From an uncultured Chlamydiae bacterium (lineage in GTDB: Bacteria > Chlamydiota > Chlamydiia > Chlamydiales > Parachlamydiaceae), in NCBI GenBank assembly GCA_963754655.1, contig CAVWGN010000001.1, forward strand, positions 2,019,565 through 2,083,564: DNA of 64,000 bases, given 5' to 3'. The translations under genes were made by a program, and so were the position numbers. Each line of letters starts with the position of its first letter. Within the stretch, counting starts at the first letter, position 1. The notes below the pieces were generated by a model. That model saw only the letters and a program-made list of their open reading frames with translations. It ran no database searches and was not told where the DNA came from. Shown piece after piece: positions 31,564 through 64,000 of this stretch.

Positions 31564-31658
31564 AAAATCTAGATGCAGCTTTTGAAATTACTTGATATAC
31601 GATGAGGGGCTTTTCAATCTAAAATTCTTTTCGACAGATCTTAATTTTTCAAAAGCTG

Positions 31659-32157
31659 GTACTCAACCACATTAGTTTTGTGTATTTAGACTGCTTCAAA
31701 GCCCCGGGGCTAGGGTGTTCATTTTGTGCAAAAAATGAGCTTTATTTTTCACAATAATTGGCATAGTTGAATAGAAGGTCGCATGTTTATGCCGTCCTTT
31801 CAGGACTCGATGTCTTTTTGATAGAACCCAGGCCTCCGCTTCGCTGCGACCTGGGCTGTAACATGACGGCCCTTCAGGCCTTAACAAGAGATGTTTAAGT
31901 CTCTCTTCTATAGTCCCTAAATCATCTTTTTGTTAAGGCCTGAAGGGCCGTCATGTTACAGCCCAGGTCGCAGCGAAGCGGAGGCCTGGGTTCTATCAAA
32001 AAGACATCGAGTCCTGAAAGGACGGCATAAACATGCGACCTTCAATTTAACTATGCCAATTATTGTGAAAAATAAAGCTCATTTTTTGCACAAAATGAAC
32101 ACCCTAGCCCCGAGGCTTTGAAGAGTCTAAATACACAAAACTAATGTGGTTGAGTAC
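31659..32157. repeat. Large modular palindrome, copy 2 (simplest form: two ~227-nt arms around a 47-nt spacer)
   Basis: gtactcaaccacattagttttgtgtatttagactgcttcaaagccccgggg...core... on the left and its reverse complement on the right, ending ...ctaatgtggttgagtac. The non-palindromic spacer is at 31886-31932. Confidence 0.95.
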
Positions 32158-32206
32158 TAGGAACGAAATGCTTCTGGCAAACTCCAGAAGCTAAATTTGT
32201 CGCTCA

Positions 32207-32440
32207 AGCGGCGTTAGCCGCGCATGGATAGTAGCCGTGGGTGTAGGCGAAGCCGGAACCCACGGTGTATGGTAAAAAAAATGAAGCCACGTTAGTGGCG
32301 TAGGAAATGTGATGGTGGAGCAATGTTTATTTAAACGAATGCTACGCCACTAACGTGGCTCAAATTTGTTTTTTGGGTAACCGTGGGTTTCGGCTTGCGC
32401 CTACACCCACGGCTACTATCCATGCGCGGCTAACGCCGCT
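32207..32440. repeat. Unrelated imperfect palindrome (~234 bp)
   Basis: agcggcgttagccgcgcatggatagtagccgtgggtgtaggcg... pairs with ...cgcctacacccacggctactatccatgcgcggctaacgccgct. The inner arms are gaagccacgttagtggcgtag / ctacgccactaacgtggctc. Confidence 0.85.
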
Positions 32441-32516
32441 CGTCGCTGAGGGAAAGGATATGGATCAAGCAACATTGCAAAAACAAAGATAAAGATTCCA
32501 ATTACCTAGCCATATG

Positions 32517-34014: not shown

Positions 34015-35040
34015 ATGATTACAAGGTTCAAAATGCATCACTTAATCTTAAATGTCTTAATTCTAGGAGGTACCAATTTTTTAGGGCCTCATTTAGCTGA
34101 AGAGCTACACCAACGCGGACATGAAATCACACTCTTCCACCGCGGAACCCCCTCTTCTCATTCTCTTGAGTATGCCTCACATCTTTATGGAGATAGAGAG
34201 GGAAGCCTCAAAGCTTTAGAAGGCAAGCGTTGGGATGCTGTCATAGATACATCAGGGCATCTCCCGCGAATTGTAGAATCTTCTTCGAAAATCCTTTCGC
34301 AAGCAACGGAGCACTACACCTTTATTTCAACAATAGGTGTTTATGAGGATTTTTTAACCTCTAATATTAATGAAAGCCATCCTGTTGCAAAGTTGGAAAA
34401 TGAAAATGATGAAGAAATTACGGAAAAAAACTATGGGGCTTTGAAAGCGAAGTGTGAGCAAGTCATTCAAAGTTATTTTCCACACCATTCGCTAATTATA
34501 CGTCCAGGACTTATCGTAGGACCCTATGATACAACAGGTCGTTTTACATATTGGCCTCGACGCATAATAAAGGGTGGAGAAATACTCGCTCCCGGTGATC
34601 CAAAACAACAAGTACAATTTATTGATGCGCGCGATCTTGCAAAATGGATTGTGGACATGATTGAGAAGAAGTCAACGGGAATTTATCAAGCAACCGGGCC
34701 CTCTACTCCCCTAACATTTGAGCAATTTCTCCAGACCTGCATGAAGCATAGTCAAAAAGAAGCTCAGCTTTATTGGGTAGATGAAAAATTTCTCTTAGAT
34801 CAACAGGTCCAAGATTGGACGGACCTTCCGCTGTGGCTTGCAAGCAAAAGAAACATGCCGGGATTCCAAAAGATGGATATCACAAAGGCTATTCAAGCAG
34901 GACTGACTTTTCGCCCTCTTTCTGAAACAATTGCAGATACTCTTTCATGGGACCTTTCTCAGTCTAATGAAAAAAAGTTCACAGGTTTAGAACAGGAAAA
35001 GGAAAAAAAACTTTTGCAAATTTGGAAGGATCATAAATAA
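34015..35040 (+). CDS. NAD(P)-dependent epimerase/dehydratase-family (extended SDR) protein
   Basis: 341 aa. Rossmann motif VLILGGTNFLGPHL near the N-terminus; the true start may be the Met at 34033. Confidence 0.75.
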   Translation: MITRFKMHHLILNVLILGGTNFLGPHLAEELHQRGHEITLFHRGTPSSHSLEYASHLYGDREGSLKALEGKRWDAVIDTSGHLPRIVESSSKILSQATEHYTFISTIGVYEDFLTSNINESHPVAKLENENDEEITEKNYGALKAKCEQVIQSYFPHHSLIIRPGLIVGPYDTTGRFTYWPRRIIKGGEILAPGDPKQQVQFIDARDLAKWIVDMIEKKSTGIYQATGPSTPLTFEQFLQTCMKHSQKEAQLYWVDEKFLLDQQVQDWTDLPLWLASKRNMPGFQKMDITKAIQAGLTFRPLSETIADTLSWDLSQSNEKKFTGLEQEKEKKLLQIWKDHK

Positions 35041-35222
35041 AAAGACTGTTTCCAGCCCACCGTGACAGAACTCCTTATGCGATTAGTTTTTGCCTATTGG
35101 GGCTGCTTCAAGCCCCGGGATTGAATGGGCATAAGTGGGTCCAATATTATATACACCGCAATTTCTTGCTATATCGCTCCGCGATATAGCAAAAAATTAA
35201 AGCTGAGATGAAAAAATCTTGT

Positions 35223-43186: not shown

Positions 43187-43424
43187 CTTATCGCAAACGC
43201 GAGCCTAATTTAAGCCTTTAGTTTTTGATTTAAGCTAAAGGCTTCTTTTTCTTTATAGATTTTGTTGAAATAAACTAATAACGATTTTAAACGAAAAAAC
43301 CTCTAAGTTTCCGCTCAGAATCAACGCACGACAATCCCATGCGGATTTGATGCCATGCAGTCCAATCATATGGGCTTAAAATATTTCGCCGCTTCGCTCT
43401 ATCTCCTAGTAGGTTTAGCCTATT

Positions 43425-44210
43425 GGGAGTGCTTGAAAGCTCCGGGCTAGGGTGTTCATTTTGTGCAAAAAATGAGCTTTATTTTTCACAATAATTGGCA
43501 TAATTAAATTGAAGGTCGCATGTTTATGCCGTCCTTTCAGGACTCGATGTCTTTTTGATAGAACCCAGGCCTCCGCTTCGCTGCGGCCTGGGTTGTAACA
43601 TGACGGCCCTTCAGGCCTTAACAAAAAGATGATTTAGGGACTATAGAAGAGGGACTTAAACACCTCTTGTTAAGGCCTGAAGGGCCGTCATGTTACAGCC
43701 CAGGTCGCAGCGAAGCGGAGGCCTGGGTTCTATCAAAAAGACATCGAGTCCTGAAAGGACGGCCCTTCAGGCCTTAACAAAAAAGATGATTTAGGGACTA
43801 TAGAAGAGGGACTTAAACATCTCTTGTTAAGGCCTGAAGGGCCGTCATGTTACAGCCCAGGTCGCAGCGAAGCGGAGGCCTGGGTTCTATCAAAAAGACA
43901 TCGAGTCCTGAAAGGACGGCCCTTCAGGCCTTAACAAAAAGATGATTTAGGGACTATAGAAGAGGGACTTAAACATCTCTTGTTAAGGCCTGAAGGGCCG
44001 TCATGTTACAACCCAGGTCGCAGCGAAGCGGAGGCCTGGGTTCTATCAAAAAGACATCGAGTCCTGAAAGGACGGCATAAACATGCGACCTTCAATTTAA
44101 CTATGCCAATTATTGTGAAAAATAAAGCTCATTTTTTGCACAAAATGAACACCCTAGTCCCGGGGCTTTGAAGAGTCTAAATACACAAAACTAGTGTGGT
44201 TGAGTACTAG
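43425..44210. repeat. Large modular palindrome, copy 3 (expanded; degenerate left outer arm; right terminus abuts/overlaps metG stop)
   Basis: Same core, spacer and outer modules as copy 2. The right end is ...ctagtgtggttgagtactag at 44191-44210. Confidence 0.9.
43605..44073. repeat. Three tandem copies of a 156-157-nt unit inside palindrome copy 3
   Basis: The unit ggcccttcaggccttaac-spacer-ttaaggcctgaagggccgtcatgttacagcccaggtcgcagcgaagcggaggcctgggttctatcaaaaagacatcgagtcctgaaaggac starts at 43605, 43761 and 43918. Confidence 0.9.
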
Positions 44211-51501: not shown

Positions 51502-52893
51502 TTAGTCGTTGGGAACATTTGGATAAGGTTTGTAATGAACATATAGATCATTTAACCAGCTATTTATTTGGTTTCTAAAATGGTATTCCAAACTAATCAT
51601 GTCAATTTTCTGGCATGTATCAATTACCAATAAGGTTAGATTTCTCATCTTTTCAAGATATTGAATTCCTCCATTGTCGATATTAGGAAGAGAAACTAAC
51701 CGTAATGTTCTAAGACTCGGATAGGTAGCAATAATGTTCAAAGCTCCATTATGTAGGCCCACTAAATTTTCCAGGTGTAATTCTTTTAAATCATGCATGG
51801 CCAAAAGGTTCTTAAAACCCTCATCTTTTATTAACGGGCACCCTGCAAGGCGTAAACAACTTAAGCTTAATCCACTAATTTTTCTCAAAAACTCTCCCGT
51901 TATTCGAGGCGCAGAAAAAATCCCAAGTTTGTCCAGCTTCAGTTGACTTAAAGTAGAGGCACATTCATCGTCTGTGCAACCACGGAGATATAAGGAAGTT
52001 AAATTAGTCAAAGCCTTCAATCTTGCCAACCCTTGATTAGGGACATTTTGACCAAAAATACTCAGGTGTTGTAATCCAGTCAACTGAACAATAGGCTGAA
52101 AGCTGTCTGGTGTTGACATTGTACAATTACCTAAGATGAGATCCCGCAGTCCAGTTTGTCTGGGGAGGTGAGCAAAATCACTATCTGGAATTGGTCTATT
52201 TAGTGTCCAAAATTCTAGCCGCTTTAGAGAATTCGTACCCACAGAAGATATCAACTGGTCGTTTTCTCCCATATTGATTCCACGTATACCTAGAGTTTGT
52301 AACTTGGTGAGTGAATGGAGCACAGGCGTCAAGGCCGAGCCGTCCAAGTTGCAGTAATCTATCTCGAAGTGCTCAAGCTTTTGCAAGGCAGTAAAGCGTA
52401 AGAAGCTCTCAGAACTCAAGTTTGTCACTTTTGCACCCAAGAATAGTGTGTTGAGATTGGATAACTGAATCAGCGAGCTTAGAGTTTCGTCATTGAATGA
52501 ATGGCGAGACTGGTCATCATCAGGGGGTTTAATCTCTACAACTCTCAGGTCTTTGCAAGAGTGCTTAGACATCTCATTAAGCATAGCTTGTAGATAAAAC
52601 ACCTCTCTTGATTTCTTGATGATAATCTTATCAGTATATGTAAAGACTAGAGAATAGAACTTTTTGCTGGAACCCAAAAGGCCCTGCAACTGAATAAGGT
52701 CTGTTTGCTGGATGATAGTCATCAAGATATCGGTCGGTAAACTAGTAAAAGGTCCTTCTTCTTGAACGTCTGTTATTTGATTAGCCTCAGAGCTAACACC
52801 TTCTCTTCTTCTCTTTATGCCTCCTAATAATCTCTCTTCTAGAGGATCACCATAAGTCGTCATTGGTTGAATTGAACGGATGGATGTATTCAT
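51502..52893 (-). CDS. F-box-like + cysteine-containing LRR protein, paralogue 1
   Basis: 463 aa. F-box-like motif FTSLPTDILMTIIQQTDLIQLQGLLGSSKKFYSLV, followed by ~24-26-aa LRRs (LTNLTSLYLRGCTDDE, LRTLRLVSLPNIDNGGIQYL, LTLLVIDTCQKIDMISL). aggag RBS. Confidence 0.85.
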   Translation of the reverse strand: MNTSIRSIQPMTTYGDPLEERLLGGIKRRREGVSSEANQITDVQEEGPFTSLPTDILMTIIQQTDLIQLQGLLGSSKKFYSLVFTYTDKIIIKKSREVFYLQAMLNEMSKHSCKDLRVVEIKPPDDDQSRHSFNDETLSSLIQLSNLNTLFLGAKVTNLSSESFLRFTALQKLEHFEIDYCNLDGSALTPVLHSLTKLQTLGIRGINMGENDQLISSVGTNSLKRLEFWTLNRPIPDSDFAHLPRQTGLRDLILGNCTMSTPDSFQPIVQLTGLQHLSIFGQNVPNQGLARLKALTNLTSLYLRGCTDDECASTLSQLKLDKLGIFSAPRITGEFLRKISGLSLSCLRLAGCPLIKDEGFKNLLAMHDLKELHLENLVGLHNGALNIIATYPSLRTLRLVSLPNIDNGGIQYLEKMRNLTLLVIDTCQKIDMISLEYHFRNQINSWLNDLYVHYKPYPNVPND

Positions 52894-55800
52894 AATAGTC
52901 TACTCCTAAAAATGCATTGAAATGGATTTTATAAATTTTATTCGCCTTTAGATTGACGACATATCAATAATAAAAATTCTGTTAATATTTTTGAATTTCA
53001 AAAATTAATTAACTTTAAATCTTAGTTTATATAAATTTATTCACTTTTTTGCAATGTTTAACTAAAAATCAATCAAAAAAAATTTATAAATTTCAAATTT
53101 TTTAAATCTATTTCAAGACATTTAGTTGAATTATAAATGATTTTAGAACCTTTTAAACAAGAATAAGACCTAAAACAAACAATTTCTAGATATTCTTCCT
53201 TTACTCGTCGAGAACATGTAGATAAGGTTTGTAATTAATGCTTAGATTATTTAATCGGCTATTTAGGTGATTTTTGACAAGGTAATCTATACCCCGTGTG
53301 TCGATTTTCTGACATTGGTTAACTTCTAACGCTTGTAGATTTTGCATATTTTCAAGAGATTGAATTCCTTTGTTGTCAATATTAGGAAGGGAAACTAGGA
53401 CTAAATTTTTAAGAGTAGGATGCAGAGCAATCACCTTCAAGGCTGTGTTACTTAGACCTTCTAATTTTTCTAGGGCTAACCTTCCTAAATTTAAATTGAC
53501 CCAAAGGTTTATGAGATCTCGATCCATTATTAATGAACATTTGTCAAGGCGTAAAGATATTAATTTCAGATGGCTTATTTTTTTTAAAAACATTCCCGTT
53601 ATTCGGCTTTGTGGCCTGGAGATAATTGCAAGGTACCGCAGCTTCGGTTGAGTTAAACTAGAGGCACATTCATCGTCTGTGCAACCAGCGAGATGTAAGG
53701 AGGTTAAATTAGTCAAAGTCGTCAATCTTGCCAACTCTTGGTTAGGGATATTTTGACTAAAAAGACCCAGGTGTTGTAATCCAGTTAACTGAGCAATAGA
53801 CTGGAAGCTGTCTGGTGTTTGCGCTCTACAATTACCTAAGATGAGCTCCTGCAGTCCAGTTTGTCTGGATAGATAAGGAAAATCACTATCCGTAATGGGC
53901 CTGTTTGCCTCTTGTGTCCAAAGTCCTAGCTGCTTTAGAGAGGTCGTAGCCACAGAAGATATCAACTGGTCGTTTTCTTCCATATTGATGCCCCGTATGC
54001 GTAGAGTTTGTAACTTAGTGAGCGACTGGAGCACGGGCTTTAAGACCGAGCCGTCCACGTTGCAGTAAGATATCTCGAAGTGCTCAAGCTTTTGCAAGGC
54101 AGTAAAGCGTAAGAAGCTCTCAGCACTCAAGTTTGTCACTTTTGTACCCAAGAACAGCTTATTGAGATTGGATAACTGAATCAGCGAGCTTAGAGTTTCG
54201 TCATTGAATGAATGGCGAGACTTGTCATCATCAGGGGGTTTAATCTCTACAACTCTTAGGTCTTTGCAAGAGTGCTTAGACATCTCATTAAGCATAGCTT
54301 GTAGATAAAACACCTCTCTTGATTTCTTGATGATAATCTTATCAGTATATGTAAAGACTAGAGAATAGAACTTTTTGCTGGAACCCAAAAGGCCCTGCAA
54401 CTGAATAAGGTCTGTTTGCTGGATGATAGTCATCAAGATATCGGTCGGTAAACTAGTAAAAGGTCCTTCTTCTTGAACGTCTGTTATTTGATTAGCCTCA
54501 GAGCTAACACCTTCTCTTCTTCTCTTTATGCCTCCTAATAATCTCTCTTCTAGAGGATCACCATAAGTCGTCATTGGTTGAATTGAACGGATGGATGTAT
54601 TCATAATAGTCTACTCCTAAAAATGCATTGAAATGGATTTTATAAATTTTATTCGCCTTTAGATTGACGACATATCAATAATAAAAATTCTGTTAATATT
54701 TTTGAATTTCAAAAATTAATTAACTTTAAATCTTAGTTTATATAAATTTATTCACTTTTTGCAATGTTTAACTAAAAATCAATCAAAAAAAATTTATAAA
54801 TTTCAAATTTTTTACATCTATTTCAAGACATTTAGTTGAATTATAAATGATTTTAGAACCTTTTAAACAAGAATAAGACCTAAAACAAACAATTTCTAGA
54901 TATTCTTCCTTTACTCGTCGAGAACATGTAGATAAGGTTTGTAATTAATGCTTAGATTATTTAATCGGCTATTTAGGTGATTTTTGACAAGGTAATCTAT
55001 ACCCCGTGTGTCGATTTTCTGACATTGGTTAACTTCTAACGCTTGTAGATTTTGCATATTTTCAAGAGATTGAATTCCTTTGTTGTCAATATTAGGAAGG
55101 GAAACTAGGACTAAATTTTTAAGAGTAGGATGCAGAGCAATCACCTTCAAGGCTGTGTTACTTAGACCTTCTAATTTTTCTAGGGCTAACCTTCCTAAAT
55201 TTAAATTGACCCAAAGGTTTATGAGATCTCGATCCATTATTAATGAACATTTGTCAAGGCGTAAAGATATTAATTTCAGATGGCTTATTTTTTTTAAAAA
55301 CATTCCCGTTATTCGGCTTTGTGGCCTGGAGATAATTGCAAGGTACCGCAGCTTCGGTTGAGTTAAACTAGAGGCACATTCATCGTCTGTGCAACCAGCG
55401 AGATGTAAGGAGGTTAAATTAGTCAAAGTCGTCAATCTTGCCAACTCTTGGTTAGGGATATTTTGACTAAAAAGACCCAGGTGTTGTAATCCAGTTAACT
55501 GAGCAATAGACTGGAAGCTGTCTGGTGTTTGCGCTCTACAATTACCTAAGATGAGCTCCTGCAGTCCAGTTTGTCTGGATAGATAAGGAAAATCACTATC
55601 CGTAATGGGCCTGTTTGCCTCTTGTGTCCAAAGTCCTAGCTGCTTTAGAGAGGTCGTAGCCACAGAAGATATCAACTGGTCGTTTTCTTCCATATTGATG
55701 CCCCGTATGCGTAGAGTTTGTAACTTAGTGAGCGACTGGAGCACGGGCTTTAAGACCGAGCCGTCCACGTTGCAGTAAGATATCTCGAAGTGCTCAAGCT

Positions 55801-56020
55801 TTTGCAAGGCAGTAAAGCGTAAGAAGCTCTCAGCACTCAAGTTTGTCACTTTTGTACCCAAGAACAGCTTATTGAGATTGGATAACTGAATCAGCGAGCT
55901 TAGAGTTTCGTCATTGAATGAATGGCGAGACTTGTCATCATCAGGGGGTTTAATCTCTACAACTCTCAGGTCTTTGCAAGAGTGCTTAGACATCTCATTA
56001 AGCATAGCTTGTAGATAAAA
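52600..56020. repeat. 2 x ~1.71-kb near-identical tandem duplication inside the LRR gene array
   Basis: 52600-54310 and 54311-56020 are the same sequence by eye, apart from a T6/T5 run (53044 vs 54755), one a/c change in the intergenic part and one c/t change (54256 vs 55966). Gene stops at 53201 and 54911 are exactly 1710 nt apart. Confidence 0.9.
53201..54604 (-). CDS. F-box-like + LRR protein, paralogue 2 (chimeric: 5' part = paralogue 1, 3' part = paralogue 3)
   Basis: 467 aa. aa 1-~126 are identical to paralogue 1, and aa ~99-467 are identical to paralogue 3. Confidence 0.85.
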   Translation of the reverse strand: MNTSIRSIQPMTTYGDPLEERLLGGIKRRREGVSSEANQITDVQEEGPFTSLPTDILMTIIQQTDLIQLQGLLGSSKKFYSLVFTYTDKIIIKKSREVFYLQAMLNEMSKHSCKDLRVVEIKPPDDDKSRHSFNDETLSSLIQLSNLNKLFLGTKVTNLSAESFLRFTALQKLEHFEISYCNVDGSVLKPVLQSLTKLQTLRIRGINMEENDQLISSVATTSLKQLGLWTQEANRPITDSDFPYLSRQTGLQELILGNCRAQTPDSFQSIAQLTGLQHLGLFSQNIPNQELARLTTLTNLTSLHLAGCTDDECASSLTQPKLRYLAIISRPQSRITGMFLKKISHLKLISLRLDKCSLIMDRDLINLWVNLNLGRLALEKLEGLSNTALKVIALHPTLKNLVLVSLPNIDNKGIQSLENMQNLQALEVNQCQKIDTRGIDYLVKNHLNSRLNNLSINYKPYLHVLDE

Positions 56021-56314
56021 CATCTCCCTTGATTTCTTGATGATAATTTTATCAGTATATGTAAAGACTAGAGAATAGAACTTTTTACTGGAACCCAAAA
56101 GGCCCTGCAACTGAACAAGGTCTGTTTGCTGGATGATAGTCATCAAGATATCGGTCGGTAAACTAATAAAGAGTCCTTCTTCTTGAAGGCCTGTTATTTC
56201 ATTAGTCTCAAAGCTAAGACTTTCTCTTTTTCTCTTTATGCCTCCTGATGATCTCTCTTCTAGAGAATCACCGTAAGTTGTCATTGGTTGAATTGAACTG
56301 ATGGATGTATTCAT
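54911..56314 (-). CDS. F-box-like + LRR protein, paralogue 3
   Basis: 467 aa, same architecture as the family. Confidence 0.85.
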   Translation of the reverse strand: MNTSISSIQPMTTYGDSLEERSSGGIKRKRESLSFETNEITGLQEEGLFISLPTDILMTIIQQTDLVQLQGLLGSSKKFYSLVFTYTDKIIIKKSREMFYLQAMLNEMSKHSCKDLRVVEIKPPDDDKSRHSFNDETLSSLIQLSNLNKLFLGTKVTNLSAESFLRFTALQKLEHFEISYCNVDGSVLKPVLQSLTKLQTLRIRGINMEENDQLISSVATTSLKQLGLWTQEANRPITDSDFPYLSRQTGLQELILGNCRAQTPDSFQSIAQLTGLQHLGLFSQNIPNQELARLTTLTNLTSLHLAGCTDDECASSLTQPKLRYLAIISRPQSRITGMFLKKISHLKLISLRLDKCSLIMDRDLINLWVNLNLGRLALEKLEGLSNTALKVIALHPTLKNLVLVSLPNIDNKGIQSLENMQNLQALEVNQCQKIDTRGIDYLVKNHLNSRLNNLSINYKPYLHVLDE

Positions 56315-56612
56315 AATAGTCTGCTCCTAAAAATGTCTTGAAAGAGTTGTATTTATTTTCTTGGCTTTTGAATTGACAACATATCAATAAGAAAAAGTTT
56401 TTAAATATTTTTAAATTTTAAAATCAATTAATCCAAAAATTAATTTATATAGTTTTAGTCGTTTTTTTGCAATATTTAATTAAAAGATTAAACCAATAAA
56501 AATTTATAAAATTCAATTTTTATTGAAACCATTTAAAGAATTTTTATTTAACTATAAATAATTTTTAGGAATCTTTTACACAAAAATGAAGGCTGATATT
56601 CCTTATTAAAGT

Positions 56613-57992
56613 TTAGATAGGTCTGTAATGAATTTGTAAATTATTTAACCAGCTATTTATGTGATTTTTGATAAGGTAATCTATACCACTTATGTCGATT
56701 TTCTGACATTGTTGAACCAGCAACTCCTGTAGATTTGGCATTTTTTCAAGATATTGAATTCCTTCATTGTCAATATTAGGAAGAGAAGTTAGAGCTAATT
56801 CGCTAAGAGTAGGATGCTGAGCAATAATCTGCAAGGCTGTGTTATTTAGCCCTTCTAATCTGTCTAGATCTAACCTTTCTAAATGTAAATTGACCAAAAG
56901 GTTCCTGAGATCTACATCCGTTATTAACGGGCAATTAGTGAGGCGTAAATATGTTAATTTCAGATGACTCATTTTTTTTAAAAACTCTCCAGTTATTCGG
57001 CCTTGGGGCGTGGAGATAATCACAAGGCGCCGCAGCTTTGGTTGAGTTAAAGTAGAAGCACATTCATCGTCTAGGCAACCACCGAGAGATAAGGAGGTTA
57101 AATTAGTCAAAGTCTTCAATCTTGCCAACTCTTGAACAGGGATATTTTGACTAAAAAGGCCCAGGTGTTGTAATCCAGTCAACTGAGCAATAGGCTGAAA
57201 GCTGTCTGGTGTTGGCGTTGTACAATTACCTAAGATGAGATCCTGCAGTCCAGTTTGTCTGATTAGGTAAGCAAAATCACTATTCGGAATTGGCCTATTC
57301 GCTGTCCAAAGTCCTAGCCGTTTTAGAGAGGTTGTAGCCACAGAAGATATCAACTGGTCGTTTTCTTCCATATTGATGCCCCGTATGCGTAGAGTTTGTA
57401 ACTTGGTAAGAGACTGGAACACGGGTTTTAAGGCCGAGCCACCTACGTTGCAGTAATCTATCTCGAAGTGCTCAAGCTTTTGCAAGGCAGTAAAGCGTAA
57501 GAAGCTCTCAGAACTCAAGTTTACAACTTGTGCACCCAATAACAGCTTATTGAGATTGGGTAACTGAATTAGCGAGCTTAGAGTTTCGTCATTGAATGAA
57601 TAGCGAGACAGTTCATCATTAGGGGGGTTAATCTCTACAACTCTCAGGTCTTTGCAAGAGTGCTTAGACATCTCATTAAGCATAGCTTGTAGATAAAACA
57701 TCTCCCTTGATTTCTTGATGATAATTTTATCTGTATATGTAAAGACTAGAGAATACAACTTTTTGCTGGAACACAAAAGGCCCCGCAACTGAATAAGGTC
57801 TGTTTGCTGGATGATAGTCATCAAGATATCGGTCGGTAAACTAATAAAGAGTCCTTCTTCTTGAAGGCCTGTTATTTCATTAGTCTCAGGGCTAACACTT
57901 TCTCTTCTTCTCTTTATGCCTCCTGCTGATCTCTCTTCTAGAGGGTCAGCACAAGTCGCCATTGATTGAATTGAACTGACGGAGATATTCAC
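56613..57992 (-). CDS. F-box-like + LRR protein, paralogue 4
   Basis: 459 aa, same architecture as the family. Confidence 0.85.
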   Translation of the reverse strand: MNISVSSIQSMATCADPLEERSAGGIKRRRESVSPETNEITGLQEEGLFISLPTDILMTIIQQTDLIQLRGLLCSSKKLYSLVFTYTDKIIIKKSREMFYLQAMLNEMSKHSCKDLRVVEINPPNDELSRYSFNDETLSSLIQLPNLNKLLLGAQVVNLSSESFLRFTALQKLEHFEIDYCNVGGSALKPVFQSLTKLQTLRIRGINMEENDQLISSVATTSLKRLGLWTANRPIPNSDFAYLIRQTGLQDLILGNCTTPTPDSFQPIAQLTGLQHLGLFSQNIPVQELARLKTLTNLTSLSLGGCLDDECASTLTQPKLRRLVIISTPQGRITGEFLKKMSHLKLTYLRLTNCPLITDVDLRNLLVNLHLERLDLDRLEGLNNTALQIIAQHPTLSELALTSLPNIDNEGIQYLEKMPNLQELLVQQCQKIDISGIDYLIKNHINSWLNNLQIHYRPI

Positions 57993-58333
57993 GATATTCT
58001 GCTCCTAAAATGTATTGAAAAAGGGTTTTATTTATTTTATTCGCTTTTGAATTGACGACATATCAATAAGATATTTTTTTAATATCTTTTAATTTTTGAA
58101 AATCAATTAATCTTAAACCTTAGTTTATATAAATTGAGTCGATTTTTGCAATATTTAATTAAAAGATTCAACCAAAAAAATTTTATAAAATTCAAATTTT
58201 AAAGAAATTTTATTCAAGTATGAATAATTTTTAATAACTTTTAAAAAAATGGAGACTTGAAATAAACATTTCATTGATATAGATAATGGCAAAGCAAAAG
58301 ACCTGAGTCCTCTTAGACACTAGCCTTTGCCTA

Positions 58334-58901
58334 CTAGTACTCAACCACACTAGTTTTGTGTATTTAGATTGCTTCAAAGCCCCGGGGTTGAATTGACGTA
58401 AGTGGGTCCATATTGCTAATATTGACCCACTTACGTCAATTCAACCCCGGGGTTAGGGTGTTCATTTTGTGCAAAAAATGAGCTTTATTTTTCACAATAA
58501 TTGGCATAGTTAAATTGAAAGTCGCATGTTTATGCCGTCCTTTCAGGACTCGATGTCTTTTTGATAGAACCCAGGCCTCCGCTTCGCTGCGACCTGGGCT
58601 GTAACATGACGGCCCTTCAGGCCTTAACAAAAAGATGATTTAGGGACTATAGAAGAGGGACTTAAACATCTCTTGTTAAGGCCTGAAGGGCCGTCATGTT
58701 ACAGCCCAGGTCGCAGCGAAGCGGAGGCCTGGGTTCTATCAAAAAGACATCGAGTCCTGAAGGACGGCATAAACATGCGACTTTCAATTTAACTATGCCA
58801 ATTATTGTGAAAAATAAAGCTCATTTTTTGCACAAAATGAACACCCTACCCGGGCTTTGAAGCAGTCTAAATACATAAAAACTAGTGTGGTTGAGTACTA
58901 G
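58334..58901. repeat. Large modular palindrome, copy 4 (with a nested 57-bp mini-palindrome in the left arm)
   Basis: Termini ctagtactcaaccacactagttttgtgtatttaga... and ...tctaaatacataaaaactagtgtggttgagtactag. Same core and spacer as copy 2. Lies between two LRR paralogues. Confidence 0.95.
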
Positions 58902-59083
58902 AATGGTTTTAAAATCCCTATGCGTTAATTTAAAACCATCCTAATAGGCAAAAGCTAATGTAATCGAGTACACTAATCCTAGCATTTTGTAAACAGGCTC
59001 CCCGAGCACACGATGTAAAAACTCGGTTTAAGGAAAGAAAAGGCTTTGAGTCAATCTCATTCATTCCAATAATAAATTTTCCT

Positions 59084-60472
59084 TTAGCCGTTGTTAAAAT
59101 TTAGATAAGGTTTGTAAGCAATGGTTAGACTATTTAACCAGCTATTTATGTGATTTTTGATAAGATAATCTATACCACTTGTGTCAATTTTCTGACATTG
59201 TTTAACCAGCAACTCCTGTAGATTTGGCATCTTTTCAAGATATTGAATTCCTTGATTGTCAATATTAGGAAGAGAACTTAGAGCTAATTCCCTAAGAGTA
59301 GGATGCCGAGCAATAATCTGCAAGGCTGTGTTATTTATCCTTTCTAATTCGTCTAGCTCTAACCTTTTTAAATTTAAATTGACCAAAACATTCTCGAGAT
59401 CTACATTCGTTATTAATGGGCAATAACTGAGGCGTAAAGATATTAATTTCAGATGGCTCATTTTTTTAAAAAACTCTCCAGTTATTCGGCTTCGGGAAAT
59501 CGCAAGGTGCCGTAGCTTTAGTTGATTTAAAGTAGAAGCACATTCATCGCCTATGACACCACCAAGATGTATGGAAGTTAAATTAGTCAAAGTCCTCAAT
59601 CTTGCCACCTCTTGAACAGGAATATTTCGACCAAAAAGACCTAGGTGTTGTAATCCGGTCAACTGAGCAATAGGCTGAAAGCTGCCTAGTGTTGGCGTTG
59701 TACAATTACCCAAGATGAGCTCCTGCAGTCCAGTTTGTCTGGACAAGTAAGCAAAATCACTATTCGGAATTAGCCCACCTACCGTCCAAAGTCCTAGCCG
59801 TATTAGAGAAGTCGTAGCTACAGAAGATATCAACTGGTTGTTTTCTTCCATAGGGGTGCCCCGTATACGTAGAGTTTGTAACTTGGTAAGTGACTGGAGC
59901 ACGGGCCTTAAGGCCGAGGCGTCTACGTTGCAGTAAGTTATCTCGAAGTGCTCAAGCTTTTGCAAAGCGGTAAAGCGTAAGAAGCCTTCAGAACTCAAGT
60001 TTGTAAATCTTCCGTTCAAGAGCAGCTTATTGAGATTGGGTAACTGAATCAGTGAGCTCAGAGTTTCGTCATTAAATGAATAGCTACACTGGTCATTATT
60101 AGAGAGGTTAATTTCCAAAACTCTCAGGTCTTTGCAAGAGTGCTTAGACATCTCATTAAGCATAGCTTGTAGATAAAATGCTTCTCTTGATTTCTTGATG
60201 ATAATTTTATCAGCATATGTAAAAACTAGAGAATACAACTTTTTACTAGAACATAAAAGCCCCTGCAACTGAACAAGGTCTGTTTGCTGGATGATAGTCA
60301 TCAAGACATCGGTGGGTAAACTAGTAAAAGGTCCTTCCTCTTGAATGCCTCTGATTTGATTAGCCTCAAAGCTAAGACTTTCTCTTCTTCTCTTTATGCC
60401 TCCTGATGGTCTCTCTTCTAGTGGATCACCATAAGGCATCATTGGTTGCATTGAACTGACGGCGGTATTCAT
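59084..60472 (-). CDS. F-box-like + LRR protein, paralogue 5
   Basis: 462 aa, same architecture as the family. Confidence 0.85.
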   Translation of the reverse strand: MNTAVSSMQPMMPYGDPLEERPSGGIKRRRESLSFEANQIRGIQEEGPFTSLPTDVLMTIIQQTDLVQLQGLLCSSKKLYSLVFTYADKIIIKKSREAFYLQAMLNEMSKHSCKDLRVLEINLSNNDQCSYSFNDETLSSLIQLPNLNKLLLNGRFTNLSSEGFLRFTALQKLEHFEITYCNVDASALRPVLQSLTKLQTLRIRGTPMEENNQLISSVATTSLIRLGLWTVGGLIPNSDFAYLSRQTGLQELILGNCTTPTLGSFQPIAQLTGLQHLGLFGRNIPVQEVARLRTLTNLTSIHLGGVIGDECASTLNQLKLRHLAISRSRITGEFFKKMSHLKLISLRLSYCPLITNVDLENVLVNLNLKRLELDELERINNTALQIIARHPTLRELALSSLPNIDNQGIQYLEKMPNLQELLVKQCQKIDTSGIDYLIKNHINSWLNSLTIAYKPYLNFNNG

Positions 60473-61031
60473 GATAGTCTGCTCCTAAAAATGTAGGGAA
60501 AGGGTTTTATTCATTTTATTCTTTTTGAATTGACGACATATCAACAATAAAAATTATGTTAATATTTTTTTAATTTTTGAAAGTCAATTAGTTTTAAACC
60601 TTATATAATATGATTCGATTTTTTTTGCAATATTTAATTAAATATTCACTAAAAAAGTTTATAAAATGCAAATTTTATTAAAAACATTTAAATAAATTTT
60701 ATTCGAGCATGAATAATTTTTAATAATTTTCAAAAAAATGAGGGCTGAAATAAAGATTTCATAGATACAGATAATGGCAAAGCAAAAAACCTAAGTCCTC
60801 TTTGACACTAACTTTTGCCTATTAGAACAGGTTTAAAATCCCTATGCGTTAAGTTAAAACCATCCTAATAGGCAAAAGCTAAAGTAATTGAGTAATCATG
60901 TTAGTATTTTGCAAACATGCTCCTATCCAAACACACGGGCGTAAAAACTTGGTTTAAGGAAGGGAAATGAAAGAGCTTTTAGTCAATTTCATTCATGCAA
61001 TAATAAATTCTCCTTTATTCCTTATTAAAGT

Positions 61032-62411
61032 TTAGATAGGTCTGTAATAAATCTGTAAACTATTTAACCAGCTATTTATGTGATTTTTGATAAGGTAATC
61101 TATACCAATTGCGTCGATTTTCTGACATTTTTTAACCAACAACCCCTGTAGATTTTGCATCTTTTCAAGATATTGAATGCCTTGATTGTCAATATTAGGA
61201 AGAGAACTTAGAGCTAATTCGCTAAGAGTAGGATGTTGAGCAATAATCTGCAAGGCTGTATTATTTAGCCTTTCTACTTTGTCTAGATCTAACCTTTCTA
61301 AATTTAAATTGACCAAAATGTTCCTGAGATCTACATCGGTTATTAACGGGCAATTAGTGAGGCGTAAAGATGTTAATTTCAGATGGCTCATTTTTTTTAA
61401 AAACTCTCCAGTTATTCGGTCTCGAGGCGTGGAGGCAATCGCAAGGTGCCGCAGCTTTGGTTGAGTTAAAGTAGAGGCACATTCATCGTCTATGCAACCA
61501 CTAAGATGTAAGGAAGTTAAATTAGTCAAAGTCTTCAATCTGGCCACCTCTTGAACAGGGATACTTTGACTAAAAATACCCAGGTGTTGTAATCCAGTCA
61601 ATTGAGCAATAGGCTGAAAGCTATCTAGTGTTGGCGTTGTACAATTACCTAAGATGAGCTCCTGCAGTCCAGTTTGTTTGGATAGGTAAGCAAAATCAGT
61701 AGTCGGAATTGGCCTATCCGCTGTCCAAAGTCCTAGCCGTTTTAGAGAGGTTGTAGCCACAGAAGATATCAACTGGTCGTTTTCTCCCATATTGATGCCC
61801 CGTATGCGTAAAGTTTGCAACTTGGTAAGGGACTGGAGCACGGGTTTTAAGGCCGAGCCATCTACGTTGCAGTAAGCTATCTCAAAGTGCTCAAGCTTTT
61901 GCAAGGCAGTAAAGCGTAAGAAGCTGTCAGAACTCAAATTTGTCACTTGTTCACCCAATAAAAGCGTGTTGAGATTGGGTAACTGAATCAGTGAGCTCAG
62001 AGTTTCGTCATTAAATAAATTGCGAGACTGGTCACCATTAGGGGGTTTAATCTCTACAACTCTCAGGTCTTTGCAAGAGTGCTTAGACATCTCATTAAGC
62101 ATAGCTTGTAGATAAAACATCTCCCTTGATTTCTTGATGATAATTTTATCAATATATGTAAAAACTAAAGAATACAACTTTTTGCTGGAACATAAAAGGC
62201 CCTGCAACTGAACAAGGTCTGTTTGCTGGATGATAGTCATCAAGATATCGGTCGGTAAACTAATAAAGAGTCCTTCTTCTTGAAGGTCTGTTATTTGATT
62301 AGCCTCAGAGCTAATACTTTCTCTCCTTCTTTTTATGCCTCCTGATGATCTCTCTTCTAGAGAATTACTGTAAGTTATCATTGGTTGAATTGAGCTGATG
62401 GATGTATTCAT
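61032..62411 (-). CDS. F-box-like + LRR protein, paralogue 6
   Basis: 459 aa, same architecture as the family. Confidence 0.85.
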   Translation of the reverse strand: MNTSISSIQPMITYSNSLEERSSGGIKRRRESISSEANQITDLQEEGLFISLPTDILMTIIQQTDLVQLQGLLCSSKKLYSLVFTYIDKIIIKKSREMFYLQAMLNEMSKHSCKDLRVVEIKPPNGDQSRNLFNDETLSSLIQLPNLNTLLLGEQVTNLSSDSFLRFTALQKLEHFEIAYCNVDGSALKPVLQSLTKLQTLRIRGINMGENDQLISSVATTSLKRLGLWTADRPIPTTDFAYLSKQTGLQELILGNCTTPTLDSFQPIAQLTGLQHLGIFSQSIPVQEVARLKTLTNLTSLHLSGCIDDECASTLTQPKLRHLAIASTPRDRITGEFLKKMSHLKLTSLRLTNCPLITDVDLRNILVNLNLERLDLDKVERLNNTALQIIAQHPTLSELALSSLPNIDNQGIQYLEKMQNLQGLLVKKCQKIDAIGIDYLIKNHINSWLNSLQIYYRPI

Positions 62412-62861
62412 GATAGTCTGCTCCTAAAAATGTAGGAAAGGGTTTTATTTATTTTCTTGGCTTTTGAATTGACGACATATCAATAAGAAAAATTTTGTTA
62501 ATATTTTTAAATTTTAAAATCAATTAATTCCAAAAATTAATTTATATAAGTTTAGTCGATTTTTTGCAATATTTAATTAATTAAAAGATTCAAACAGCAA
62601 AAAAACTTATAAATTCAAGTTTTCTTAAAATTATTTAAATAAATTTTATTGAACTATAAATGATTTTTAGGAATTTTTTACACAAAAATGAAGGCTGAAA
62701 TAAAGATTTTATAAATACAGATAATCTTAAAATAAAGAACCTAATTAGTTTTGCCACTTTGCACAGGCCGTAAAAACTTAGTTTAAGGAAGGGAAATAAA
62801 AGAACTTTGAGTCAATCTCATTCATTGCAATAATAAATTTTTCTTTATTCCTTATTAAACT

Positions 62862-64000
62862 TTAGATAGGTCTGTAATAAATTTTTAAACTATTTAACCA
62901 GCTATTTATGTGATTTTTGATAAGGTAATCTATACCAATTGCGTCGATTTTCTGACATTGTTTAACCAGCAACCCCTTTAGATTTAGCATCTTTTCAAGA
63001 TATTGAATTCCTTGATTGTCAATATTAGGAAGAGAAATTAGAGCTAATTCGCTAAGAGTAGGATGCTGAGCAATAATCTGCAAGGCTGTGTTATTTAGCC
63101 CTTCTAATCTGTCTAGATCTAACCTTTCTAAATTTAAATTGACCAAAATGTTCCTGAGATCTACATCCGTTATTAACGGGCAATTAGTGAGGCGTAAAGA
63201 TGTTAATTTCAGATGGCTCATTTTTTTTAAAAACTCTCCAGTTATTCGGCCTCGGGGCGTGGAGATAATCACAAGGTGCCGCAGCTTTGGTTGAGTTAAA
63301 GTAGAGGCACATTCATCGTCTAGGCAACCACCGAGATGTAAGGAAGTTAAATTAGTCAAAGTCTTCAATCTTGCCACCTCTTGAACAGGAATATTTCGAC
63401 TAAAAAGGCCCAGGTGTTGTAATCCAGTCAACTGAGCAATAGGCTGAAAGCTGTCTAGTGTTGGCGTTGTACAATTACCTAAGATGAGCTCCTGCAGTCC
63501 AGTTTGTCTGATTAGGTAAGCAAAATCACTAGTCGGAATTGGCCTATCCGCTGTCCAAAGTCCTAGCCGTTTTAGAGAGGTTGTAGCCACAGAAGATATC
63601 AACTGGTCGTTTTCTCCCATATTGATGCCCCGTATGCGTAAAGTTTGCAACTTGGTAAGGGACTGGAGCACGGGTTTTAAGGCCAAGCCACCTACCTTGC
63701 AGTAATCTATCTCGAAGTGCTCAAGCTTTTGCAAGGCAGTAAAGCGTAAGAAGCTCTCAGAACTTAAGTTTGTCACTTGTGCACCCAAGAATAGCGTGTT
63801 GAGATTGGGTAACTGAATCAGTGAGTTCAGAGTTTTGTCATTAAATAAATTGCGAGACTGGTCACCATTAGGGGGTTTAATCTCTACAACTCTTAGGTCT
63901 TTGCAAGAGTGCTTAGACATCTCATTAAGCATAGCTTGTAGATAAAACATCTCCCTTGATTTCTTGATGATAATTTTATCAGTATATGTAAAAACTAAAG
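62862..64000 (-). CDS. F-box-like + LRR protein, paralogue 7 (5' end beyond the window)
   Basis: Homology to the siblings continues upstream of the ORF-track Met (63951-64000 encodes ...TYTDKIIIKKSRE). The gene is therefore cut by the window edge. Confidence 0.8.
   Translation of the reverse strand, partial: LVFTYTDKIIIKKSREMFYLQAMLNEMSKHSCKDLRVVEIKPPNGDQSRNLFNDKTLNSLIQLPNLNTLFLGAQVTNLSSESFLRFTALQKLEHFEIDYCKVGGLALKPVLQSLTKLQTLRIRGINMGENDQLISSVATTSLKRLGLWTADRPIPTSDFAYLIRQTGLQELILGNCTTPTLDSFQPIAQLTGLQHLGLFSRNIPVQEVARLKTLTNLTSLHLGGCLDDECASTLTQPKLRHLVIISTPRGRITGEFLKKMSHLKLTSLRLTNCPLITDVDLRNILVNLNLERLDLDRLEGLNNTALQIIAQHPTLSELALISLPNIDNQGIQYLEKMLNLKGLLVKQCQKIDAIGIDYLIKNHINSWLNSLKIYYRPI

Follow-up and report, generated by a model that had tools for sequence, protein, structure and literature searches.

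Repetitive extragenic palindromic (REP) elements and the related bacterial interspersed mosaic elements (BIMEs) and REPINs are mobilized by REP-associated tyrosine transposases (RAYTs) (PMC3733652, PMC3116915, PMC2817692). REPs form head-to-head and tail-to-tail dimers, are biased toward gene 3' ends, can be embedded in longer palindromes and are targets for insertion sequence (IS) elements (PMC3733652). Acido-Lenti-1 (Rfam RF01687) was named from Acidobacteria and Lentisphaerae and graded a likely RNA; its published alignment shows multiple copies in Lentisphaera araneosa, in tandem arrays 69-192 nt apart and also in alternating orientation, as well as copies in Koribacter and Rhodopirellula, and the sole remark on context is that the motif sometimes lies near group II introns (Weinberg et al. 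2010, PMC2864571). Among DDE-type elements, IS5 is reported to duplicate the tetranucleotide CTAG (PMC10379815). Here we describe four intergenic palindromic loci in 64,000 nt of the genome of an uncultured Chlamydiae bacterium of the Parachlamydiaceae (GenBank assembly GCA_963754655.1, contig CAVWGN010000001.1, positions 2,019,565 to 2,083,564; hereafter the window). We think it probable, with some reserve, that they are composite non-coding, non-autonomous mobile elements, in which REP/REPIN-like hairpin dimers are nested in CTAG-flanked shells that resemble miniature inverted-repeat transposable elements (MITEs).

A repeat finder returned inverted-repeat arms of 194-351 nt, 92-99% complementary, within and between the four loci of the window, and locus 2 used as a BLAST query against the window returned precisely these four. 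We defined modules by dissecting locus 2, a 497-bp composite element at 31660-32156 with the order A-L1-B-C-S(+)-C'-B'-A', where module A has 35 nt, B 61 nt, the core C 109 nt and the spacer S 47 nt. The outer A shell is flanked by CTGG on the left (31656-31659) and CTAG on the right (32157-32160), and the B shell within it (GGTGTTC...GAACACC, 31714-32103) has CTAG on both sides (31710-31713 and 32104-32107). The left core (31785-31886, plus strand) contains three hairpins and scores 106.7 bits with the extended covariance model introduced below; it forms a tail-to-tail dimer with the right core (31931-32032, minus strand) around S (31887-31933, plus strand), whose edges are degenerately palindromic. 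Module A reads TACTCAACC... (TACTCAACCACA...), module B reads GGTGTTCATT... (GGTGTTCATTTTG...), and the element is limited by TACTCAACC...GGTTGAGTA, inside the CTAG flanks.

The other loci vary this plan. Locus 4, a 560-bp element at 58338-58897 between two F-box/leucine-rich repeat (LRR) paralogue genes, is flanked by CTAG (58334-58337 and 58898-58901) and has the module order of locus 2 with S(-), its cores lying at 58521-58629 (plus) and 58674-58781 (minus). Its left arm carries an additional perfect hairpin of 58 bp (58388-58445) with CCCCGGGG on either side. Locus 3 is a 797-bp element at 43410-44206, with CTAG at 43406-43409 and 44207-44210, and opens with a left end of variant sequence, after which come B, C, a tandem series of three 157-bp units (each S plus positions 14-109 of C'), B' and A'; it carries cores at 43515-43623 (plus), 43668-43763, 43825-43920 and 43981-44089 (all minus), and thus four where a preliminary description of the window had seen an inverted pair at every locus. 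Locus 1 is a palindrome at 230-809 (arms 230-509 and 530-809, 99% complementary) of the order C-S(-)-partial C'/partial C-S(+)-C', with full cores at 322-430 (plus) and 609-717 (minus) that match the extended model at 106.7 bits, spacers at 428-474 (minus) and 565-611 (plus) and the partial inner cores at 475-564. Its outer arms are unlike those of loci 2-4, although the arm alignment shows about 25 nt adjoining C still similar to the inner end of B. The repeat finder, BLAST and the module map agree with the preliminary description on the existence of the four loci, at or close to the coordinates it gave, while the exact limits of loci 2-4 inside the CTAG are corrected to those listed here. 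The 47-nt spacer is shared, as that description held; it is not fully non-palindromic, for its edges imperfectly continue the palindrome. A separate hairpin at 35113-35149, between convergent genes at 35040 and 35223, is 86% similar to the 58-bp hairpin of locus 4, and the two probably represent another small palindromic repeat family.

Allowing three or fewer mismatches, we counted 10 copies of a 54-nt segment of the core in the window, against 0.00 expected in shuffles, and the 109-nt cores of loci 1, 2 and 4 are identical. As single-stranded DNA, locus 2 folds into one hairpin of -293.4 kcal/mol, compared with -54.4 +/- 4.4 in shuffled sequences (z = -53.8). When single modules were folded as RNA, the z-scores were unremarkable (-0.4 to -2.6). 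The only open reading frames (ORFs) inside the elements are mirrored, start with TTG and encode 43-63 aa, so the elements have no credible coding capacity, in line with the earlier statement that no copy encodes a protein. We dropped the idea that the two orientations of S reflect flip-flop inversion, as the direction of S merely follows the orientation of a near-palindromic element.

Comparison with relatives, between species only, revealed two orthologous sites without an element. In L050 and L051, the closest relatives with contigs (MetG 88% identical), the metG-rpmB spacer measures 64 bp, against about 1,020 bp in the window, 797 bp of which are element 3. The metG stop codon occupies the same codon position in all three, and in the window this stop (TAG) is the CTA of the right-hand CTAG flanking element 3 (44207-44210). 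Downstream of the adenosyltransferase gene, the relatives L056 and L057 likewise lack the element, and similarity ends at the stop codon. The elements are therefore not fixed at identical positions, and the two vacant sites, along with the dispersed core copies described below, support the earlier proposal of a non-autonomous mobile element with CTAG termini. As separate observations, ordinary AT-rich, bidirectional terminator-like hairpins stand in L050 (8068-8131) and L056 (about 5900-5975) where the window has elements, and the metG-rpmB spacer of L050 holds two CTAG tetranucleotides.

The flanks of the shells suggest how they may have been inserted. CTAG is present at five of the six outer ends of loci 2-4. 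At locus 2, moreover, the B shell lies exactly in the center of a would-be 103-bp palindrome, ...CCCCGGGG-CTAG-CCCCGAGG..., with CTAG on both sides, which we read as a nested insertion with CTAG duplication. The window also contains an IS5-family insertion sequence of 838 bp (14880-15717, minus strand) between CTAG at 14876-14879 and 15718-15721; it has a 19-nt terminal inverted repeat (TIR), GGAGCGTACCTAAAAGATT, and overlapping ORFs for DUF4096 followed by DDE_Tnp_1, probably joined by a frameshift. Flanking CTAG points to a DDE transposase of the IS5 type as the enzyme of the shells. Like IS5-derived TIR MITEs, the elements are non-coding, shorter than 1 kb and bounded by terminal inverted repeats with CTAG on both sides (PMC10379815); they likewise come in several near-identical copies, with empty sites in relatives and a resident CTAG-flanked IS5-family element. 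They differ from such MITEs in that their ends do not match the resident IS, and in being palindromic along their whole length, shell inside shell, with a hairpin dimer at the center.

The core is widely dispersed beyond the window. An exact 20-mer from its hairpin b was found in at least 47 stretches of GTDB genomes, mostly metagenome-assembled genomes (MAGs) of Parachlamydiaceae and other Chlamydiae, and many of these lie at contig ends. Most single matches of the 20-mer in GC-rich genomes (Streptomyces, Rhizomicrobium, Ruminococcus) fall in coding sequence, look like chance and were set aside. Core copies are present in at least five Chlamydiae/Parachlamydiaceae MAGs, with about 45 copies in some 250 kb sampled from one of them, which removes the possibility, left open in the preliminary description, of a local duplication only. 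At the MAG loci C alone is conserved (82-88% identity), in head-to-head and tail-to-tail dimers within different outer palindromes; modules A and B and spacer S were absent from the MAG core loci compared and were found only in the window genome. Metagenome scans gave no match to module A, and we found no earlier description for Parachlamydiaceae or Protochlamydia in the literature. Assembly can produce long inverted duplications as artefacts, and contig ends hold many of the MAG copies, yet we regard an artefact or a purely local duplication as almost certainly the wrong explanation. The flanks of the four loci are unrelated, complete dimers occur inside contigs of independent short-read MAGs, and a genuine dispersed repeat would itself cause contigs to end; an independent assembly, L001, breaks inside module A beside metG, at the same junction.

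The position of the copies relative to genes resembles that of REPs. None of the cores, 12 of which are in the window, lies inside an ORF, and the 21 assessable chlamydial loci are found between convergent genes in 11 cases, tandem genes in nine and divergent genes in one, with none intragenic, a REP-like bias to gene 3' ends. This pattern is what one would expect of host-domesticated 3'-end elements of the REP/BIME kind or the enterobacterial repetitive intergenic consensus (ERIC) kind, which would stabilize mRNA 3' ends, act as barriers to convergent transcription or bind nucleoid proteins or gyrase, their mobility being a thing of the past. With 20 of 21 loci convergent or tandem and a single one divergent, REPs showing the same location bias (PMC3733652), and element 3 abutting the metG stop codon, so that it must belong to the metG 3' untranslated region, the idea has some appeal. 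We nevertheless hold it to be unlikely as a full account: the same sites are vacant in close relatives, and the bias is equally explained by selection against promoter insertions or by targeting of existing hairpins. The preliminary description had raised terminator signals, but no hairpin-plus-T-run terminator occurs inside the elements, and rpmB has its own, separate terminator at 43212-43244. Some domestication is, in any case, compatible with the composite mobile elements that we favor and does not exclude them.

Likeness to REPs and REPINs extends beyond location. The family consists of GC-rich hairpins in tens of dispersed extragenic copies with a 3' bias; its inverted dimers can fold as larger hairpins, are embedded in longer palindromes and show symmetric changes in their halves; and other elements insert into its hairpin loops. 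Against this, the unit has about 100 nt and three hairpins instead of a single hairpin of 20-40 nt, and lacks an unpaired GTAG or CGTC tag, and no RAYT was found with it across the window and some 300 kb of chlamydial loci. The palindromes are also 5-10 times longer than REPINs and have outer shells with MITE-like CTAG flanks. Readings as CRISPR-like or integron attC-like arrays were dropped, there being no unique spacers or cassettes and the units standing in inverted dimers.

The core itself has a described relative. An Rfam scan of the window at gathering level gave no match, and an E-value scan found the 3' half of every core to match RF01687, Acido-Lenti-1, across the full 46-position model. 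The 12 matches in the window score 29.7-36.4 bits and thus stay below the gathering score of 37, the best of them at 36.4 bits, a shortfall due to 13 extra nt in the hairpin b loop; cores in related Parachlamydiaceae MAG loci pass the threshold with 37.1-41.1 bits. Homology of sequence would make the window cores borderline members of the family. They have its two hairpins with covarying stems, joined by the conserved 12-nt linker (GGCU...AUGNCG). Matches to microRNA and EF0408 families in the same scan were far below their own thresholds and were rejected as generic long-hairpin artefacts. The preliminary description, which saw no described repeat class here, was thus only partly right: the core is an extended Acido-Lenti-1, and the organization is like that of REP/BIME/REPIN elements.

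In the left core of locus 2, the RF01687 match covers 31827-31881, and the whole core contains hairpins a (GTCCT-TTC-AGGAC), b (CCCAGG-17 nt-CCTGGG) and c (GGCCC-TTC-AGGCC). In total, the unit spans about 100 nt and comprises, from the 5' end, AUGCCG, hairpin a, CUC and an AT-rich linker of about 22 nt, followed by hairpin b, GGCU, a linker ending in AUGNCG, hairpin c and CU. In the published flanks from Lentisphaera and Koribacter, hairpin a and the AT-rich linker can be recognized as well (PMC2864571, supplementary files 61 and 183), so the real unit is this a-b-c module of about 100 nt, whose 3' two-thirds correspond to Acido-Lenti-1. We aligned 23 chlamydial, three Lentisphaera and one Koribacter sequence over a-b-c: in the three stems 92% of cells were paired and nine pairs had changed on both sides, a result reached by none of 500 shuffles. 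A covariance model of the full unit gave 54 matches of at least 84 bits in 473 kb, plus a weaker class. The window cores thus resemble Acido-Lenti-1 in aligning over hairpin b, GGCU-linker-AUGNCG, hairpin c and the trailing CU, and the published copies are also numerous and tandem or alternating in orientation. They differ in their host phylum, Chlamydiae not being among the phyla named in PMC2864571, and in forming a longer a-b-c module that stands as inverted dimers inside palindromes of 0.5-0.8 kb.

Two unusual copies touch on the same layout. In L043 (about 5020-5270), one copy has a c-type arm on both sides of hairpin b (c'-b-c); the two orientations meet at the palindromic stem of b, which makes this copy a symmetric chimera. 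In an actinobacterium, Dactylosporangium sp. (L023, 7070-7200), CGGGG-CCTCCGCTTCGCTGCGA-CCCCG stands between two copies of one small hairpin, ACCTC-CTCTGAM-GAGGT; with its identical loop and a-b-c-like layout, it could be either a chance similarity or a distant relative.

Adjoining locus 2, the window contains a second, divergent subfamily as a head-to-head dimer (32202-32445; units at 32202-32308, minus, and 32337-32445, plus). The Rfam model finds no match in it, and the extended model matches it over its full length at 22-22.5 bits. Its arms are 79.5% complementary; architecture and linkers are kept while every stem is replaced by compensating sequence, and GCGAAGC appears again in the apex of hairpin b. 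A homologue is found in the relative L052 (13027-13250, with a further match at 13416-13512) between clpB and a gene of 175 aa; these two genes overlap in the window, and the site is therefore empty here.

These data bear on a plain transposon model, ordinary long-TIR MITEs of one DDE transposase, with the palindrome as a long TIR and the GC-rich core as a passenger without a role. Loci 2, 3 and 4 do share their full architecture and CTAG-flanked ends, and the CTAG-flanked IS5-family element is present in the window. However, it is the core and not the shell that is conserved across genera and phyla, and the core is found in different shells (locus 1 versus loci 2-4, and the MAGs) and in both dimer orientations. 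Such patterns, together with a second subfamily that retains the architecture with wholly different stems, would be unexpected in a passive passenger, and we consider the model quite unlikely.

The folding pattern suggests that the relevant strand is not the one annotated. We counted the non-Watson-Crick stem cells in the 70 distinct sequences of the Rfam RF01687 seed alignment and found eight G.U or U.G on the annotated strand, 38 A.C or C.A, which would be wobble pairs on the opposite strand, and eight others. On the opposite strand, the small hairpins have GNA triloops in 56 of 70 sequences (GAA in 40, GUA in seven, GCA in five and GGA in four), with G and A fixed and the middle position free, and 37 of 70 have GUGA or GUAA at the tip of hairpin b. 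Copies from chlamydiae are alike: TTC or TAC on the annotated strand are GAA or GTA on the opposite one, the closing cell is C.A in 17 of 27 sequences, and both subfamilies have GCGAAGC as the apex of hairpin b on the opposite strand. Among DNA mini-hairpins, GCGAAGC and C-GNA-G are the classic cases of extraordinary stability (PMC13037366, PMC3201870). Mismatch asymmetry, GNA/GNRA loops and the GCGAAGC apex together argue for a folded strand opposite to the Rfam annotation and lean toward single-stranded DNA. From these sequence statistics, which set the window cores apart from the published description, RF01687 may be annotated on the wrong strand, with a model that omits a conserved upstream hairpin.

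These observations also bear on a rival view in which the core is a genuine small structured RNA gene, carried or expressed from both strands by palindromes whose shells are incidental. The core matches or nearly matches RF01687, its three stems covary across phyla with conserved single-stranded linkers, and Weinberg et al. judged the motif likely RNA (PMC2864571). An RNA gene would sit oddly with genomes that each hold dozens of copies, arranged as tandem arrays or as dimers of head-to-head and tail-to-tail type, with orthologous sites variably occupied or empty, and with a core nested in CTAG-flanked shells. In addition, no promoter-like or terminator-like signal is associated with the core units, the mismatch pattern contradicts the annotated strand and the loop types are those of classic DNA mini-hairpin caps. 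We regard an RNA gene as improbable. Copy number, dimer organization, nesting and the presence/absence pattern favor mobile DNA over this and the other rival explanations.

If the shells point to a DDE enzyme, the core may be tied to another. Two tblastn queries, IS200 TnpA and E. coli RAYT, detected no Y1 transposase either in the window or in the chlamydial loci. When the 86 ORFs lying no more than 2.5 kb from a core were scanned against Pfam, the best 25 of 104 families were all housekeeping families. A lead came instead from a MAG labelled Candidatus Paceibacterota (JAYWCB01), in which six contigs break at one and the same end of a multi-copy IS200-like element (the starts of L004, L011 and L019 and the ends of L013, L029 and L030). 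About 12 nt from the element boundary lies a hairpin, CCCCGG-CCTCCGCTTCGCTGCGA-CCGGGG, with a 17-nt loop identical to that of the chlamydial hairpin b and a stem with a compensatory change. An ORF on the other strand stops some 35 nt short of this hairpin. Over its final 40 residues, the best matches are to the C terminus of PF01797 Y1_Tnp (E 0.012) and of NF033573 transpos_IS200 (E 0.0028), and the database holds just two relatives of it, both fragments, of which one bears the annotation putative transposase and the other contains PF01797. In L049, a related remnant carries another hairpin in the corresponding position, and the sequences on either side are unchanged. A metagenome scan for the Paceibacterota-type hairpin and a viral-contig scan for the hairpin b loop gave no match. 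In the JAYWCB01 element, GCGAAGC lies on the tnpA-sense strand, which in IS608 is the strand acted on by these transposases.

The comparison with IS200/IS605 elements and palindrome-associated transposable elements (PATEs) is accordingly mixed. In favor are the IS200-like right end of JAYWCB01, with an identical 17-nt loop on a covarying stem about 12 nt from the end, and window hairpins of a type stable in single-stranded DNA. IS200/IS605 ends, by contrast, are in direct orientation, without TIR or target duplication, whereas the window cores are inverted dimers in TIR-like shells; no tnpA is linked to the chlamydial copies, and the similarity is limited to hairpin b. A link of hairpin b to an HUH enzyme is a hypothesis drawn from this resemblance. 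Two of the enzyme leads in the preliminary description, HUH and IS5, have found some support in the IS200-like hairpin apex and the CTAG-flanked IS5-family element, while a transposase with A-matching ends did not turn up.

Hairpin b is itself an insertion target. In the MAG MGR_bin366, a 133-bp MITE with TIR CAATGGCATTCGGTTAAG and a 10-bp duplication, AGCGGAGGCC, occupies a fixed position in the hairpin b loop in at least eight copies (L047, 6817-6949 and 7073-7199; L043, 5079-5211; L040, 3814-3946; also L003, L007, L028 and L046). Among IS elements, IS1397 is an example that targets REPs. The inner end of the window module B (AATTGGCATAGTT) resembles the TIR of the MGR_bin366 MITE.

The near-perfect palindromes also carry traces of correction between arms. 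Three substitutions are common to both arms of one element and absent from every other: locus 4 has GAAAGTC, locus 3 has GGGTTGT in its outer cores, and locus 2 has CACATTAG. In the arm alignment, about five substitutions are restricted to one arm. Substitutions shared by both arms of a single element imply that a change in one arm was copied to the other.

Taken together, the composite mobile elements that we favor would have arisen in several layers. A tail-to-tail dimer C-S-C' forms the center of two concentric palindromic shells, B within A, each bounded by CTAG, the putative target duplication typical of IS5-type transposases. Acting in trans, a DDE transposase that recognizes the A ends and inserts at CTAG would have copied the whole A-B-C-S-C'-B'-A' unit to three loci or more. 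The core would function as single-stranded DNA in its folded form, with GNA/GNRA caps and a GCGAAGC apex on the strand that Rfam does not annotate, and may be, now or formerly, the recognition module of a trans-acting HUH enzyme (Y1, IS200/RAYT-like). Arm identity would be kept by arm-to-arm copying, through gene conversion or hairpin-state repair. A wider and bolder version is possible, although we would sooner bet against it: Acido-Lenti-1 would then be no small RNA but the opposite-strand, single-stranded DNA recognition module of an old REP-like selfish family in Chlamydiae, Lentisphaerae, Planctomycetes and Acidobacteria, its three hairpins capped by GNA, GNRA or GCGAAGC mini-hairpin loops and related to the IS200/IS605 right-end hairpin, and the modules of environmental chlamydiae and CTAG-targeting MITEs would have repeatedly inserted into the centers of each other's palindromes, building perfect palindromes of 0.5-0.8 kb kept symmetric by arm-to-arm correction.

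Several points weigh against this interpretation. The intergenic DNA beside the empty sites is unalignable, and the exact pre-insertion sequences are therefore inferred and not observed. One of the six outer ends, at the left of locus 2, has CTGG in place of CTAG, and CTAG is palindromic, which makes a target duplication indistinguishable from a terminal CTAG of the element. The TIR of the resident IS5-family element (GGAGCGTACC...) is unlike A (TACTCAACC...) or B (GGTGTTCATT...), and searches turned up no autonomous element that has A-type ends, nor any match to module A in the metagenomes scanned. The excess of A.C over G.U is driven by two alignment columns and related sequences, and covariation cannot tell DNA hairpins from RNA hairpins. 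With the two tblastn queries and the best 25 of 104 Pfam families, no Y1 or RAYT gene was found in the window or the approximately 300 kb of chlamydial loci, and the IS200 link consists of one hairpin in one unrelated MAG, where the transposase fragment, with just 40 aa to compare, matches weakly.

The genes flanking the elements encode, among others, a chlamydial DUF818 protein, F-box/LRR paralogues, ribosomal protein L28, MetG and a PduO-type adenosyltransferase; MetG shares 75% identity with its Protochlamydia naegleriophila counterpart and up to 89% with those of metagenomic relatives, so that the window belongs to a Protochlamydia-like member of the Parachlamydiaceae. At 6532-18085 and 51502-63950 of the window, five genes contain 75-bp tandem arrays, 53 copies of 25-aa leucine-rich repeats, and seven paralogous genes of about 460 aa stand in a run, two of which, when checked, gave weak F-box and LRR matches below Pfam thresholds. 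Together they form large expansions of gene families, of a kind described in amoeba-associated chlamydiae.

What is new here is the chlamydial host range, the extended three-hairpin unit with a second subfamily, and the nested CTAG architecture with very long perfect palindromes; new, too, are signs that the Acido-Lenti-1 element works at the DNA level and from the opposite strand, possibly with ties to enzymes of the IS200 type. For an Rfam motif without a function since 2010, this offers an explanation at the DNA level, as a REP-like module that an HUH enzyme would recognize, extends it to the Chlamydiae and to a longer unit, and suggests that the annotated strand of the family is wrong. The loci are an unusually clear case of mobile palindromes nesting within each other at CTAG centers. 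The elements break Parachlamydiaceae assemblies and could serve as strain markers. Finally, perfect palindromes with arms of 230-280 nt persist in a bacterial chromosome. Palindromes of such length and perfection are unstable in E. coli, and their persistence raises questions about hairpin processing, for example by SbcCD, in these endosymbionts.

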